Source: a virus
Lineage: Duplodnaviria; Heunggongvirae; Uroviricota; Caudoviricetes
DNA length: 6,219 nucleotides
IMG/VR virus record: IMGVR_UViG_2534681831_000018
Reading direction: 5' to 3' (one strand)
Shown: piece by piece, positions 910 to 6,219 of the stretch
Position numbering within the stretch: the first letter of the stretch is position 1
Layout of the letters: each line of letters starts with the position of its first letter
Made by a program: the position numbers and the translations under genes
The notes under the pieces: generated by a model
What the model was told of the DNA's origin: nothing
The model's input: the letters and a program-made list of their open reading frames with translations, nothing else
Database searches by the model: none

Positions 910-920
910 AAATAAAAAAA

Positions 921-947
921 TCCCGCAGAGTTAGCGGAGCTGCGGGA
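921..947. other. GC-rich inverted repeat (8-bp stem TCCCGCAG / CTGCGGGA, 11-nt loop) just after the I stop; on the minus strand it is followed by a T-tract and so looks like an intrinsic terminator for leftward transcription, on the plus strand its 3' arm overlaps the Shine-Dalgarno of the small ORF
   Basis: Read directly: 921-928 tcccgcag pairs with 940-947 ctgcggga. The A-run 910-920 lies on the 5' side (+ strand), which is a T-run 3' of the hairpin on the - strand. Confidence 0.35.
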
Positions 948-954
948 GAGAACG

Positions 955-1074
955 ATGAAGATTAACGTTATGGAGTTATTTTTCAGGCATCAAAAAAGTA
1001 ATGCAGCGTCATTATTGCGGCTACAGGCAATTGCCGGAAATGTGAAGAGTTTCAGAAATTTTATTCCGTCATGA
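955..1074 (+). CDS. Hypothetical small protein (39 aa) in the I-J spacer; candidate moron ORF
   Basis: ATG 955 to TGA 1072-1074, translation MKINVMELFFRHQKSNAASLLRLQAIAGNVKSFRNFIPS. GGGAGAG at 944-950 sits 4-6 nt upstream of the ATG. An intrinsic-terminator-like hairpin starts 4 nt after the stop. The region is AT-rich (about 37% G+C by hand count) against GC-rich flanking tail genes. No homolog recognised; too short for the supplied ORF track. Confidence 0.25.
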   Translation: MKINVMELFFRHQKSNAASLLRLQAIAGNVKSFRNFIPS

Positions 1075-1077
1075 CAC

Positions 1078-1107
1078 AGGCACCCTCCGGGGTGCCTGTT
1101 GTTTTCT
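1078..1107 (+). terminator. Putative rho-independent terminator (8-bp GC-rich stem AGGCACCC / GGGTGCCT, 4-nt loop TCCG, then T-rich tract TGTTGTTTTCT)
   Basis: Read directly: 1078-1085 pairs with 1090-1097, loop 1086-1089, T-rich tract 1098-1107. It lies between the small ORF and the J start. Confidence 0.5.
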
Positions 1108-1216
1108 GGCATAAACAGATTCAGACATCAGACAGGAGAGGGGGACAGAGTGGGTAAAGGGGGCGGCGAAGGGGCACACGCCGGTAGAGGCAAAGGACAA
1201 TCTTAAGTCCACGCAG

Positions 1217-1774
1217 ATGATGAGCGTGATTGATGCGATTGGTGAGGGACCGATAGAAGGCCCGGTGAAGGGACTGCAGAGTATCCTGGTGAACAAAACC
1301 CCGCTGACGGACACGGACGGTAATCCCGTGATACACGGTGTGACTGCGGTCTGGCGTGCCGGGGAGCAGGAGCAGACACCACCGGAAGGCTTTGAGTCCT
1401 CCGGAGCTGAAACCGGACTGGGCGTGGATGTGACGAAGGCAAAGCCGGTGACGCGCACCATTACGTCCGCGAACATTGACCGCCTGCGGGTTACCTTCGG
1501 GGTGCAGTCACTGGTGGAGACCACCTCAAAGGGTGACCGTAACCCGGCATCCGTCCGCCTGCTGATTCAGTTACAGCGTAACGGTAACTGGGTGACAGAA
1601 AAGGATGTCACCATTAACGGCAAGACCACCTCACAGTTCCTCGCTTCGGTGATTCTGGATAATCTGCCTCCCCGTCCCTTTAACATCCGGATGGTCAGGG
1701 AGACGGCGGACAGCACCACGGACCAGCTGCAGAACAGACGCTGTGGTCGTCATACACCGAAATCATCGATGTGA
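1217..1774 (+). CDS. J: Host specificity / tip attachment protein J (central tail fibre), N-terminal segment in frame 2; part of a frame-disrupted J locus spanning 1150-4629
   Basis: Translation [81 protein letters not shown] matches lambda gpJ residues ~23-207 from memory. The homology extends upstream of ATG 1217 in the same frame (KGAAKGHTPVEAKDNLKSTQ) with no in-frame start codon; the likely native start is GTG 1150 (AGGAG at 1134-1138) in a different frame. The C-terminal tail of this ORF (..[12 protein letters not shown]) is out-of-frame sequence after the indel at 1736-1737. Confidence 0.7.
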
Positions 1775-4629
1775 AACAGTGCTACCCGAACACGGCCATT
1801 GTGGGGCTGCAGGTGGATGCGGAGCAGTTTGGCGGTCAGCAGATGACGGTGAACTACCATATCCGCGGTCGCATCATCCAGGTACCGTCAAACTATGACC
1901 CGGAAAAACGCACGTACAGCGGCATCTGGGACGGCAGCCTGAAACCGGCATACAGCAACAACCCGGCCTGGTGCCTGTGGGACATGCTGACTCACCCGCG
2001 CTACGGCATGGGAAAACGTCTGGGGGCGGCGGATGTGGACAAGTGGGCGCTGTATGCCATCGGGCAGTACTGCGACCAGACGGTCCCGGATGGTTTCGGG
2101 GGCACAGAGCCGCGGATGACCTTTAATGCGTACCTGTCACAACAGCGTAAGGCGTGGGACGTTCTCAGTGATTTCTGCTCGGCGATGCGCTGTATGCCGG
2201 TATGGAACGGCCAGACGCTGACGTTCGTTCAGGACCGCCCGTCGGATGTGGTGTGGCCGTACACCAACTGCGATGTGGTGGTGGATGATAACGGCGTGGG
2301 GTTTCGCTACAGCTTCAGCGCCCTGAAGGACCGCCACACGGCGGTGGAGGTGAATTACACCGACCCGCAGAACGGCTGGCAGACCTCCACGGAACTGGTG
2401 GAAGACCCGGAAGCCATACTGCGCTACGGGCGCAACCTGCTGAAGATGGATGCGTTCGGTTGCACCAGTCGCGGTCAGGCCCACCGTGCCGGGCTGTGGG
2501 TGATAAAGACCGGACTGCTGGAAACGCAGACGGTGGATTTCACGCTCGGGTCACAGGGGCTGCGTCACACACCCGGTGACATTATTGAAATCTGTGATAA
2601 CGACTATGCCGGGACCATGACCGGCGGACGTGTCCTGTCCATTGATGCCGCCAGCCGCACCCTGACACTGGACCGTGAGGTGACCCTGCCGGAGACAGGT
2701 GCCGCCACGGTGAACCTGATTAACGGCAGCGGTAAGCCGGTGAGCGTGGCCATCACTGCACACCCCGCGCCGGACCGGATACAGGTCAGCACCCTGCCTG
2801 ATGGTGTGGAGACATACGGTGTATGGGGACTCTCCCTGCCGTCACTGCGTCGTCGCCTGTTCCGCTGTGTCTCCATCCGGGAAAACACGGACGGCACCTT
2901 TGCCATCACGGCGGTGCAGCACGTACCGGAAAAAGAAGCCATCGTGGATAACGGAGCGCACTTTGACGGCGACCAGAGCGGCACCCTGAACAGCGTTATT
3001 CCACCGGCAGTGCAGCACCTCACGGTGGAGGTGAGCGCGGCTGACGGCCAGTATCTGGCACAGGCGAAATGGGACACGCCGCGGGTGGTGAAGGGGGTGC
3101 GCTTCAGTCTGCGACTGACCAGCGGAAGCGGAGAAGGCAGCCGTCTGGTGACCACCGCCATCACCGCGGATACAGAGCATCGTTCCAGTGGTCTGCCGCT
3201 CGGGGAATACACCCTGACAGTCAGGGCAATTAACAGCTATGGCCAGCAGGGCGAACCGGCCACCACCACCTTCCGGATTAACGCGCCAGCAAAACCCGCC
3301 ACCATTGAACTGACGCCGGGGTATTTTCAGATAACGGCGGTCCCGCGTCTTGCGGTGTATGACCCGACGGTACAGTTTGAGTTCTGGTTTTCGGAGACAA
3401 AAATCGCAGACACATCTCAGGTGGAAACCTCTGCCCGTTATCTGGGGACCGGCAGTCAGTGGAGTGTATCCGGCCCGCACATTAAGCCCGGGAAGGATTT
3501 CTGGTTTTACGTGCGCAGCGTCAACCTGGTGGGGAAATCTGCGTTTGTGGAAGTCAGCGGGCAGCCCAGCAATGATGGTGAAGGGTATCTGGAATTTTTC
3601 CGGGAAAAAATAGGAAAACTGCATCTGGCTCAGGGGCTGTGGGAGCTGATAGACAACAGCCAGCTTGCGGATGAGATGGCGGAGATGAAGACCACCATCA
3701 CCGAAACCCGCAATGAAATCACACAGACGGTCAGTAAAACGCTGGAAGACCAGAGCGCCACCATTCAGCAGATACAGCGCGTGCAGAAGGACACAAATGA
3801 TGACCTGGCTGCGCTGTACATGCTGAAGGTTCAAAAAACGAAAGACGGCATTCCCTATGTGGCCGGGATTGGTGCAGGGATTGAGGATACTGATGGCCAG
3901 CCACTGAGCAACATACTGCTGCTGGCTGACCGTATCGCGATGATAAATCCGGAGAGCGGCAACAGCACGCCGTTATTTGTGGCGCAGGGGAATCAGCTGT
4001 TCATGAACGACGTGTTCCTGAAACGACTGTTTGCGGTGAGCATCACGTCATCCGGCAATCCTCCGGCATTTTCCCTGACGCCGGACGGGCGACTGACGGC
4101 GAAAAATGCGGATATCAGTGGCAGTGTGAATGCGAACTCAGGGACGCTCAACAACGTCACGATTAATGAGAACTGTCAGATTAAGGGGAAACTGTCAGCC
4201 AACCAGATTGAAGGCGATATTGTCAAAACGGTCAGCAAGTCTTTCCCCCGCACGAGCACTTATGCCAGTGGCACTATCACGGTAAGAATCAGTGATGATC
4301 AGAAGTTTGACCGGCAGGTCATGATACCGCCAGTGTTATTCCGCGGTGGTAAGCATGAGAATTTCAACAGTAATAACCAACAGTCATACTGGTATTCAAC
4401 CTGCCGGTTAAGAGTGACCCGCAATGGTCAGGAGATTTTTAATCAGTCCACGACGGATGCTCAGGGCGTATTTTCCTCAGTTATAGATATGCCTGCCGGA
4501 CAGGGGACGCTGACACTGACATTCACCGTATCTTCATCAGGAGCGAATAACTGGACACCAACAACCAGTATCAGCGATCTGCTGGTTGTGGTGATGAAAA
4601 AATCCACAGCAGGTATCAGTATCAGCTGA
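1771..4629 (+). CDS. J: Host specificity / tip attachment protein J (central tail fibre), main body and C-terminal receptor-binding region, in frame 1
   Basis: 952-codon ORF ending TGA 4627-4629. Translation is collinear with lambda gpJ from ..[19 protein letters not shown] through ..[53 protein letters not shown].. and ..[40 protein letters not shown].. to ..[34 protein letters not shown].. and the end ..KK...GIS. The frame-1 homology actually begins at 1738 ([10 protein letters not shown]), upstream of the first start codon of this ORF. Confidence 0.85.
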
Positions 4630-4647
4630 ATTTTATAACCCAGAACG

Positions 4648-4671
4648 GGCGCCAGAAATGGCGCCTTTTTT
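4648..4671 (+). terminator. Putative rho-independent terminator between J and lom (palindromic stem GGCGCC / GGCGCC, loop AGAAAT, then TTTTTT)
   Basis: Read directly: 4648-4653 ggcgcc, loop 4654-4659, 4660-4665 ggcgcc, T-run 4666-4671. Confidence 0.6.
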
Positions 4672-4695
4672 ATTGCAGAAAAGCGAGAGGTAATT

Positions 4696-5295
4696 ATGCG
4701 TAAACTTTATGCCGCCATTTTGTCCGCAGCCATCTGTCTGGCCGTATCCGGTGCGCCTGCATGGGCGTCTGAACATCAGTCCACGCTGAGCGCGGGGTAT
4801 CTTCATGTCTCGACGAACGTTCCTGGCAGCGATGAACTGAACGGGATTAACGTGAAATACCGTTATGAGTTTACGGACACACTGGGAATGGTGACGTCAT
4901 TCAGCTATGCAGGAGACAGGAATCGCCAGCTGACCCGTTACAGCGATACCCGCTGGCATGAAGATTCCGTGCGTAACCGCTGGTTCAGCGTGATGGCGGG
5001 GCCGTCTGTGCGCGTGAATGAATGGTTCAGCGCGTATGCGATGGCGGGTGTGTCTTACAGCCGTGTGTCGACTTTCTCCGGGGATTATCTCCGCGTAACT
5101 GACAACAAGGGGAAAACGCACGATGTGCTGACCGGAAGTGATGACGGTCGCCACAGCAACACGTCTCTGGCGTGGGGGGCTGGCGTGCAGTTTAACCCGA
5201 CCGAATCCGTGGCCATTGATATTGCTTATGAAGGCTCCGGCAGTGGCGACTGGCGCACTGACGGTTTCATCGTGGGTGTCGGTTATAAGTTCTGA
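4696..5295 (+). CDS. lom: Outer membrane beta-barrel protein Lom (Ail/Lom/PagC/Rck family); lysogenic-conversion moron
   Basis: ATG 4696 to TGA 5293-5295, 199 codons, GAGAGG 6 nt upstream. N-terminal signal peptide MRKLYAAILSAAICLAVSGAPAWA with an AxA cleavage motif. Shared blocks with lambda Lom as I recall it: GINVKYRYE.TD, SVMAGP, SAYAMAGV, and the C-terminus IAYEGSGSGDWRTDGFIVGVGYKF ending in Phe. Position between J and stf is the same as in lambda. Confidence 0.85.
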   Translation: MRKLYAAILSAAICLAVSGAPAWASEHQSTLSAGYLHVSTNVPGSDELNGINVKYRYEFTDTLGMVTSFSYAGDRNRQLTRYSDTRWHEDSVRNRWFSVMAGPSVRVNEWFSAYAMAGVSYSRVSTFSGDYLRVTDNKGKTHDVLTGSDDGRHSNTSLAWGAGVQFNPTESVAIDIAYEGSGSGDWRTDGFIVGVGYKF

Positions 5296-5321
5296 TTAGC
5301 CAGGTAACACAGTGTTATGAC

Positions 5322-5349
5322 AGCCCGCCGGTTCAGGCGGGCTTTTTTG
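5322..5349 (+). terminator. Putative rho-independent terminator between lom and stf (stem AGCCCGCC / GGCGGGCT, loop GGTTCA, then TTTTTT)
   Basis: Read directly: 5322-5329 pairs with 5336-5343, T-run 5343-5348. Confidence 0.6.
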
Positions 5350-5359
5350 TGGGGTGAAT

Positions 5360-6219
5360 ATGGCAGTAAAGATTTCAGGTGTACTGAAAGACGGCACAGG
5401 AAAACCGGTAGAGAACTGCACCATTCAACTGAAAGCCAGACGGACCAGCAGCACGGTGGTGGTGAACACGGTGGCCTCTGAAAATCCGGATGAAGCCGGT
5501 CGTTACAGCATGGACGTTGAGTACGGTCAGTACAGAGTCATTCTGTTGGTGGAAGGATTCCCGCCGTCACATGCCGGGACCATCACCGTGTATGAAGATT
5601 CTCAACCCGGTACGCTGAATGATTTTCTCGGTGCCATGTCGGAGGATGACGTCCGGCCGGAGGCACTGCGCCGTTTTGAACTGATGGTGGAAGAGGTGGC
5701 GCGTCACGCTGAGGAGGCGAAGAAGAATGCCGGAGAGGCGGAGACGTCAGCGAGGAATGCCGGCATATCAGCCAGTCAGGCAGAAGAGAGCGCGGCAAAT
5801 GCTGACACTTCAGCAGGGGAGGCATCGGAGTCAGCCCGGCAGGCGGCAGAAAGTGCAGCCGCTGCAAAGCAGTCAGAGGAGGCGTCCTCGTCCTCGGCTT
5901 CTGCGGCCGCTCAAAAAGCCAGTGAGTCATCACAAAGTGCAGCAGAAGCTGAATTGTCAAGAAAGACGGCAGAAAGTGCAGCCGGTAATGCAGCCAGGGA
6001 TGCGACGACCGCAACAGAAAAAAGCCCGGGAGTCAGCAGAAAGCGCACAGTCAGCGGAACAAAGCAGGATAGCGGCGGAAGAGGCCGTAAACCGAATCCC
6101 CACCGTGGTGGGACCTCCGGGCCAAAGGGGGAACAGGGGCCCGCGGGTCCTCAGGGGCCGAAGGGTGATAAGGGAGAGCGCGGTGACACCGGCCCTGTCG
6201 GGGCAACCGGACCTCAGGG
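5360..6219 (+). CDS. stf: Side tail fibre protein Stf, N-terminal part; continues beyond the window end; includes an Ala/Ser/Glu-rich low-complexity region and the start of a collagen-like Gly-X-Y repeat
   Basis: ATG 5360, frame 2, no stop to the window end. N-terminus MAVKISGVLKDGTGKPVENCTIQLKARRTSSTVVVNTVASENPDEAGRYSMDVEYGQY.VIL.V.GFPPSHAGTITVYEDSQPGTLNDFL is near-identical to the lambda Stf / E. coli prophage StfR N-terminus as I recall it. It is followed by A/S/E-rich low complexity and then GPKGEQGPAGPQGPKGDKGERGDTGPVGATGPQG. Confidence 0.8.
   Translation, partial: MAVKISGVLKDGTGKPVENCTIQLKARRTSSTVVVNTVASENPDEAGRYSMDVEYGQYRVILLVEGFPPSHAGTITVYEDSQPGTLNDFLGAMSEDDVRPEALRRFELMVEEVARHAEEAKKNAGEAETSARNAGISASQAEESAANADTSAGEASESARQAAESAAAAKQSEEASSSSASAAAQKASESSQSAAEAELSRKTAESAAGNAARDATTATEKSPGVSRKRTVSGTKQDSGGRGRKPNPHRGGTSGPKGEQGPAGPQGPKGDKGERGDTGPVGATGPQ

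Follow-up and report, generated by a model that had tools for sequence, protein, structure and literature searches.

A probable small RNA gene of the EcOnc22/PasB type, antisense to the tail operon, in the extra DNA between genes I and J of a lambdoid prophage

The stretch of DNA analysed here (the window, 6,219 nucleotides) belongs to a lambdoid, Stx-phage-like prophage and contains its tail end, as its ORF map and database matches demonstrate. The end of K is followed by I (232-909), whose TGA stop codon occupies 907-909 on the plus strand, and by J, which is read from a GTG start (1150-1152) on the same strand. Further downstream are a 199-codon ORF (4696-5295) in the position held by lom in lambda and the first part of a side tail fibre gene. 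Over 880-1180 the closest match is the Stx1 phage VT1-Sakai (99.3%), with O111:H8, O103:H2 and O157:H7 chromosomes among the other closest matches, and the window flanks find their best match in O111:H8 (99.7%).

I and J are separated by an intergenic spacer of 240 nt (910-1149). An earlier, sequence-only reading of this DNA had set that length against a spacer of about 60 nt in lambda and had concluded that about 180 nt of AT-rich DNA are additional. Computed gene ends bear out both points: the lambda spacer, between the end of I at 15444 and the start of J at 15505, measures 60 nt, and the segment 955-1074 has a G+C content of 36.7%, with 44.6% for the entire spacer, 60.5% for I and 57.3% for J. 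A terminator scan of the surrounding region (700-1400) returned three terminator-like sites where shuffled sequences predict 0.6.

All 240 positions of the spacer agree with the I-J spacers of prophages Sp15, Sp14 and Sp11 of E. coli O157 Sakai and with that of VT1-Sakai (AP000400), which is Sp15. For these three prophages, respectively, Tree et al. (2014, PMC4104026, Table S2) reported the Hfq-bound RNAs EcOnc22, EcOnc23 and EcOnc24, homologues of one another that give a Northern band of about 85 nt and are 'destabilised' in a delta-hfq strain (PMC4104026). The corresponding Hfq-CRAC peaks (2902714-774, 2676643-704 and 2166694-753, plus strand) all lie inside J...I intergenic regions and, as the Sakai I and J genes are on the minus strand, on the strand antisense to both. 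One of these regions, ECs2161...ECs2162 (J...I), holds rank 48 in the list of Hfq-bound intergenic regions, and one strand accounts for about 99% of its reads (PMC4104026, Table S1B). EcOnc22 targets are listed as unknown in a later review of the subject by Sy & Tree (2021, PMC7873438). The element is already known, having been described experimentally for exactly the same sequence, and its novelty is therefore low.

We consider it highly probable (about 0.88) that the extra I-J DNA is an sRNA gene cassette of lambdoid, mostly Stx-type, prophages, transcribed antisense to the tail operon; the experimental support derives from loci that are identical (Sakai) or homologous (EPEC) to the one studied here. 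The sequence-only reading had envisaged a self-contained unit, embedded in the late tail operon and expressed from the prophage, and in this it was right as regards both the unit and its expression in lysogens. Its fallback product, a small RNA, was also of the right type, as EcOnc22/23/24 have been reported for the identical sequence. What has to be given up is the plus-strand assignment, since the documented RNA comes from the minus strand.

The CRAC coordinates of Tree et al. refer to an older Sakai record (NC_002695.1), and the shift between it and the current one (NC_002695.2) had to be estimated. From the 3' end of AgvB1, located by Rfam in the current record, the shift at 1.94 Mb comes to +137 bp; at 2.93 Mb, a terminator fitting EcOnc15 indicates +124 to +128. 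A shift of +128 also suits EcOnc51, whose end then coincides exactly with a second PasA-like terminator, although about -24 could suit it too. Because the three I-J peaks are equally offset from their spacers (21-23 nt), a single shift applies to all of them. With +128, the EcOnc22 peak would run from about 998 to 938 on the minus strand of the window, inside the predicted RNA, a placement that depends on the estimate; with zero shift it would run from 1126 to 1066, still within the spacer and still antisense. The former position is much more likely than the latter, if short of proven.

The predicted primary transcript, an EcOnc22-type sRNA of the PasB family, would extend over about 91 nt on the minus strand (1004 to 914), its 5' end being placed from the -10 hexamer. 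This start is a G at 1004, giving GCAUUAC..., and the annotated 5' end of PasB corresponds to 989. The length calculated in this way can be compared with the reported lengths of about 85 nt in Sakai and 83 nt in EPEC. The body of the sRNA consists of a U-run, a variable 5' part, a conserved core (977-955) and a terminator hairpin (947-921), and its predicted fold (z = -3.9) contains a clean terminator. In the intrinsic terminator as a whole (910-947, minus strand), the stem 940-947/921-928 (UCCCGCAG/CUGCGGGA) encloses a loop of 11 nt and is followed by a U-tract (U7) encoded by the A-run at 910-920; the terminator scan likewise identified a minus-strand site, with a stem (938-922) and then ATTTTTTTAT leftwards. 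The hairpin at 921-947 thus exists as the sequence-only reading had described it, and it functions as the terminator of the minus-strand sRNA rather than as the upstream boundary of a plus-strand unit. The core is single-stranded and CU-rich (955-977, minus strand, AACUCCAUAACGUUAAUCUUCAU); its family consensus, AACUCCUUAAC..UAAUCUUC, is anti-Shine-Dalgarno-like, and we regard it as the putative seed of the sRNA.

Comparisons between spacers were made on a set drawn from annotated phages and from IMG/VR contigs that carry an almost invariant block located upstream of the sRNA promoter, comprising 130 copies and 80 distinct sequences. Across the 80 variants the terminator stem, the -10 hexamer and the central core are kept and the 5' part varies. 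The terminator stem is maintained by a compensatory change in one variant (CCCACAG/CTGTGGG) and by shifted stems of the CTCCCG...CGGGAG type in others. RNAalifold, applied to 18 diverse members in which the variable part aligns poorly, recovered the terminator alone and no conserved 5' structure. A scan of the whole window with Rfam 15 returned nothing in 900-1150 even at E <= 1, and a full-text literature search with the hairpin sequences gave chance matches only.

The sRNA has a counterpart in enteropathogenic E. coli. PasB of EPEC E2348/69 is an RNA of 83 nt encoded on the minus strand (NC_011601, 1466343->1466261; Pearl Mizrahi et al. 2021, PMC8550237, Table S6) in prophage PP6 (PMC8550237). 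We located it between E2348C_1436, which is I (end 1466255), and E2348C_1437, which is J (start 1466496). In a delta-hfq background PasB drops strongly, with log2 fold changes of -6.8 and -2.4, and RIL-seq assigns it 37 partners (PMC8550237). The PasB Northern probe, AATCCCGCAGTGATCGCGGAGCT (PMC8550237, Table S6), corresponds to the hairpin adjoining the I stop, at 919-941 of the window, where three loop positions differ, and it matches relatives in our spacer alignment exactly. Overall, a global alignment gives the window sRNA and PasB 72.5% identity; their 7-bp stem is identical, and they share the core AACUCC..UAAUCUUCAU. Judged by position and by sequence, the spacer sRNA is a homologue of PasB.

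This relationship bears on how PasB itself is viewed. A recent survey, which used blastn with a word size of 28 and a query cover of >75%, described PasB as the least diverse of the Pas sRNAs and mostly single-copy, and located its seed immediately ahead of the terminator (Zhu, Shabalina & Storz 2026 preprint). The longest exact word common to the window variant and E2348/69 PasB is 15 nt, short of the exact word of at least 28 nt on which that survey depends, and together with the 72.5% identity this put the window variant outside its net. Table S6 of PMC8550237 gives EHEC homologues for PasA and PasD and none for PasB, EcOnc names are absent from the 2026 preprint, and the link between PasB and EcOnc22 seems to be unstated in either the 2021 PasB paper or the preprint. 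Joining PasB with EcOnc22-24 makes PasB one branch of a diverse, multi-copy family, not a low-diversity, single-copy sRNA. Our additions to what has been published are modest: the PasB-EcOnc22 link, the breadth of the family, and a lead concerning CRP.

For the sRNA promoter, homology puts the -10 hexamer at minus-strand positions 1016-1011, where the window has AATAAT and relatives have TATAAT, GATAAT or TATCAT; positions 2, 3, 5 and 6 of the hexamer are invariant in the BLAST-derived set. The -35 region of the window is poor (TCCGGC/TTCCGG at about 1033-1039), and it is this, in combination with AATAAT as the -10 hexamer, that explains why a promoter scan of the window did not find a sigma-70 site. 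In the E2348/69 copy the promoter scan detected a minus-strand TTCACA-16-TATAAT, a match at 11 of 12 positions, and the promoter of the window sRNA is assigned, as a candidate, by homology to this strong promoter.

Upstream of the sRNA promoter lies the almost invariant block (1037-1075). It hardly varies among relatives whose overall identity is only 72-85%, and its invariance in the larger spacer set is partly due to ascertainment. The block includes a CRP-like site, AAATGTGA-N6-TCAGAAAT (1038-1059, with AGAGTT as N6), which is the sole match in the window, against 0.01 expected, and is invariant in the BLAST relatives. The centre of this site is 32.5 bp upstream of the -10 hexamer, and the spacing between block and hexamer is constant. 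If transcription starts 7 nt after the -10 hexamer, the centre falls at about -44.5 and not at the canonical -41.5, so the site does not have the position of a class II CRP promoter. DMEM, one of two media in which PasB levels have been compared, contains glucose. PasB levels in LB ('non-activating') exceed those in DMEM (PMC8550237), a pattern that would fit catabolite control, with the reservation that the conditions may differ beyond the medium. Control of the sRNA promoter by CRP is accordingly offered as a lead, not a finding, suggested by the sequence of the site; an invariant CRP-like site would nevertheless provide a cheap, testable handle on the timing of sRNA synthesis.

Taken together, these features suggest a model for how the element operates. 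In a lysogen, RNA polymerase would start at the minus-strand promoter with its -10 hexamer at 1016-1011, and the invariant upstream block, possibly via CRP, may help initiation despite the weak -35. Transcription would proceed leftward for about 85-90 nt and halt at the hairpin 947-921 and its U-tract, a few bases before the I stop codon. The sRNA would then be bound by Hfq and would need it for stability, as reported for the identical Sakai sequence (PMC4104026). By analogy with other Hfq sRNAs, the most likely mode of action would be pairing of the CU-rich core (977-955), in trans, with mRNAs of the host or of the prophage. During lytic growth, Q-modified polymerase would be expected, from the biology of the lambda late operon, to read through the plus-strand terminator at 1076-1107.

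The alternative favoured by the sequence-only reading was a protein-coding moron, in which the plus-strand ORF of 39 codons at 955-1074 is translated from its own Shine-Dalgarno sequence in a unit bounded by terminators. The ORF is present, with the peptide as quoted, and it has GGGAG upstream and a terminator downstream. In addition, about 16 of the 80 variants have an intact homologous ORF, some of them sharing a C-terminal ...NVK.FRNFIPS, and in one phage record the equivalent position carries an annotated 'hypothetical protein' of 33 codons. As a gene for a small protein, however, the ORF does not hold up. Related spacers show it broken by stops and indels, the very pattern that the sequence-only reading had named as counting against a coding function: the homologous ATG is kept in 46/80 distinct spacers and replaced by ACG, ACA, AAG or AAA in 34/80; the first stop is encountered after 5-43 codons; only 16/80 variants stay open all the way between the homologous ATG and its stop counterpart; and indels ignore the frame, with the length of the segment modulo 3 equal to 0, 1 and 2 in 36, 20 and 24 variants. 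The stretches that are conserved are the sRNA core and the promoter block, which are unrelated to codon structure, and the start of the ORF seemed conserved because ATGAAGATTAAC..GGAGTT is the reverse complement of the conserved sRNA core. The supposed Shine-Dalgarno sequence, GGGAGAG (944-950), is mostly the 3' arm of the hairpin at 921-947, which leaves GGGAG inside a stem. The promoter scan of the window found no plus-strand promoter, neither Pfam nor PHROG offers a significant match to the peptide (one PHROG hit has E = 0.26), and about 99% of Hfq-bound reads come from the opposite strand (Tree et al. 2014, PMC4104026). We therefore judge the ORF to be non-coding and a protein-coding moron to be very improbable. 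A minus-strand ORF of 40 codons (990-1112) was also considered and rejected, its start codon and length being unconserved.

The second hairpin of the spacer calls for separate treatment. It forms a plus-strand intrinsic terminator (1076-1107) just upstream of the J ribosome-binding site, with a stem of 10 pairs, 7 of them G-C (1076-1085/1090-1099), a TCCG loop and the tail TGTTTTCT, so that the sequence-only reading was correct in calling it a terminator on that strand. Its inclusion in the inserted unit does not stand, because lambda has a hairpin in the same place: the 60-nt lambda spacer contains a GC-rich hairpin followed by UUUUGUCAUUU (z = -2.8) that aligns with the one at 1076-1107. The plus-strand terminator is probably an old, ancestral feature of the I-J junction. 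Since the lambda hairpin occurs without the invariant block, the block arrived together with the sRNA gene, and the DNA inserted here but missing from lambda comprises the sRNA gene and its control block, placed between the I stop and the plus-strand hairpin. It is also conceivable that the block and the hairpin act as plus-strand RNA, besides or instead of the block's role at the minus-strand promoter, for example as an sRNA derived from the I message at its 3' end, or as an element by which the late transcript is stabilised or processed. Conservation of the block exceeds that of the flanking coding sequence, a conserved stretch right before a terminator is the layout of many Hfq sRNAs, the T-tract is confined to the plus strand, and lambda has its hairpin in the same position. 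Pairing within 1076-1099 is kept in 98.9% of cells over 18 distinct versions, with one compensatory pair (C:G to U:A), and single-sided changes over the 80 spacers leave 11 non-pairs when read as plus-strand RNA versus 27 as minus-strand RNA, so that the G-U intermediates fit plus-strand RNA only. Against this, the Hfq-CRAC (PMC4104026) and RIL-seq (PMC8550237) tables report no plus-strand sRNA here, late genes are silent in lysogens, the lambda hairpin lacks the block, and the constant spacing between block and -10 hexamer fits a promoter element, all of which leads us to regard a plus-strand function as rather improbable. A different possibility accepts the minus-strand RNA and makes cis action its main role, the late transcript directly beyond the I stop being the partner to which it is antisense. 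Cleavage, or uncoupled or dampened J expression, could follow in its own prophage or, with imperfect pairing, in co-resident ones, and late transcription could in turn mop up the sRNA. Lambda has antisense RNAs such as OOP, which are textbook precedents; across 914-1004 the RNA lies opposite the late operon and is perfectly complementary to its transcript, and a genome may contain up to 10 copies of different variants. The overlap stops short of the J ribosome-binding site, however, which is 140 nt away, and PasB has its 37 partners in trans along with classic Hfq-sRNA features. Action mainly in cis is in our estimation unlikely, and an Hfq-dependent sRNA made from the minus strand and probably pairing in trans is the reading that we carry forward.

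The spacer element is widespread. Segment 910-1110 matches 1842 of 5426 complete E. coli genomes (34%) at 5584 places, with a median of 2 and a maximum of 10 copies per genome. The best copy is at least 99% identical in 437 records and only 60-80% identical in 1275, and at least 5 sequence types of the element are visible. Scanning one genome per bacterial species for the invariant block returned only two tiny contigs, in Asaia and Parendozoicomonas assemblies, which are probably contaminating E. coli DNA; with no credible match outside E. coli, the family seems confined to E. coli/Shigella at this stringency. Among the matches listed for RefSeq complete E. coli genomes none carries an annotation of the element. 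Since these matches are unannotated and Rfam has no model of the element, naive readers and gene callers will go on proposing a spurious small ORF in its place, and one phage record already annotates such an ORF in the spacer. The extra DNA needs no new biology to account for it, as it corresponds to a published prophage sRNA gene.

We speculate that PasB and EcOnc22/23/24 may belong to one large, fast-diversifying family of I-J sRNAs that have a CRP-responsive block in common, differ in their seeds and constitute a nutrient-gated set, a proposal that we hold, as a whole, to be unlikely. If it were true, a cell harbouring as many as ten prophage copies would express related sRNAs with distinct targets, and their antisense position might tune the expression of J, the host-range protein, or the cross-talk between co-resident prophages.

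Among known systems, EcOnc22/23/24 of Sakai agree with the element in spacer sequence, in I-J position and in strand, and are compatible with it in size. There is no difference in the spacer sequence; the window comes from another genome, in which J has other frameshifts, and the published boundaries of the EcOnc RNAs are CRAC peaks in old coordinates rather than mapped ends. PasB resembles the element in abutting the I stop, antisense between I and J, in its dependence on Hfq, and in having the same terminator stem (CCCGCAG/CUGCGGG) with a U-tract, the central core and the upstream invariant block. The two differ by a 6-nt indel and smaller ones, in the 5' third and part of the core, and in promoter strength, with a consensus -35/-10 in PasB versus a weak promoter in the window variant. 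Like the element, the EHEC prophage 'anti-sRNAs' AgvB and AsxR are short Hfq-binding RNAs at a fixed position in lambdoid prophages, with a conserved 3' part, a variable 5' part and several variants per genome. Identity with them was considered and rejected: they lie at the PR' site, downstream of PR' beside the lysis genes, in contrast to the tail-operon position described here, and they show no sequence similarity to the spacer, in which Rfam detects no AgvB or AsxR match. Like protein-coding lambdoid morons of the lom or bor type, finally, the element is lower-G+C extra DNA inserted between conserved late genes, with a promoter and terminator of its own and expression from the prophage; it departs from them in that its product is an RNA made from the opposite strand and that its ORF is unconserved.

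The I-J spacer of phage lambda (15445-15504; 246-305 of compared locus L139) contains a GC-rich hairpin, AAACCGCC-UGCG-GGCGGUUU followed by UGUCAUUU, with a fold z of -2.8. It occupies the same position as the plus-strand terminator of the window and was not called by a simple terminator scan. To our knowledge, no function has been described for it. Further rearrangement is exemplified by some I-J spacers in other phages. The spacer of phage ASU11 (L011, 401-810) carries approximately 55 nt of additional sequence 3′ of the invariant block, its downstream hairpin differs, and an annotated 66-codon ORF precedes J; in Stx2a_1447 (L009, 650-1053), an IS66-family transposase replaces J 3′ of the plus-strand terminator.

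Relative to its Sp15 counterpart, the J gene of the window (1150-4629) is disrupted at two points: one extra nucleotide is present at 1168, and one is missing at 1737. Read from the GTG at 1150, the gene runs into a stop after 18 codons, and only past 1737 is its frame regained. The Sp15 J gene has a separate 1-nt deletion, at the position equivalent to window 2259. The disruption of J in the window reflects either prophage decay or sequencing errors. Beyond J, strong terminator-like hairpins with T-tracts are located 3′ of the gene itself (4630-4680; GGCGCC..GGCGCCTTTTTT) and 3′ of a 199-codon ORF at 4696-5295 (5300-5350; AGCCCGCC..GGCGGGCTTTTTT), and near the window end (6100-6219) the side tail fibre frame, judged by eye, becomes a series of collagen-like Gly-X-Y repeats.

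In a one-genome-per-species collection, the invariant block matched only Asaia platycodi (L017, a 546-bp contig) and Parendozoicomonas haliclonae (L018, a 460-bp contig). Since the contigs are tiny and the hosts are unrelated bacteria, contamination of these assemblies with E. coli or phage DNA is the most likely explanation.

Between Q and stx1A of Sp15 lies a minus-strand sRNA-like unit (L142 ~2081-2151, corresponding to NC_002695.2 ~2926080-2926150) with the 3′ terminator GCCAGCC-N9-GGCTGGCTTTTTT. The unit fits EcOnc15, designated StxS in a 2021 review (Sy & Tree, PMC7873438), when the older coordinates are moved by approximately +126. Just upstream (locus 2371-2286) is a second, shorter PR′-like unit with its own terminator.

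A PasA homologue adjoins an esterase gene in Sakai prophage Sp12 (L140, 263-336), and its terminator is repeated ~125 nt further downstream (463-484), a duplication that renders the older EcOnc51 coordinates ambiguous. For PasA in EPEC, forms of 85 nt and 236 nt have been reported, and the two-terminator layout of Sp12 agrees with both.
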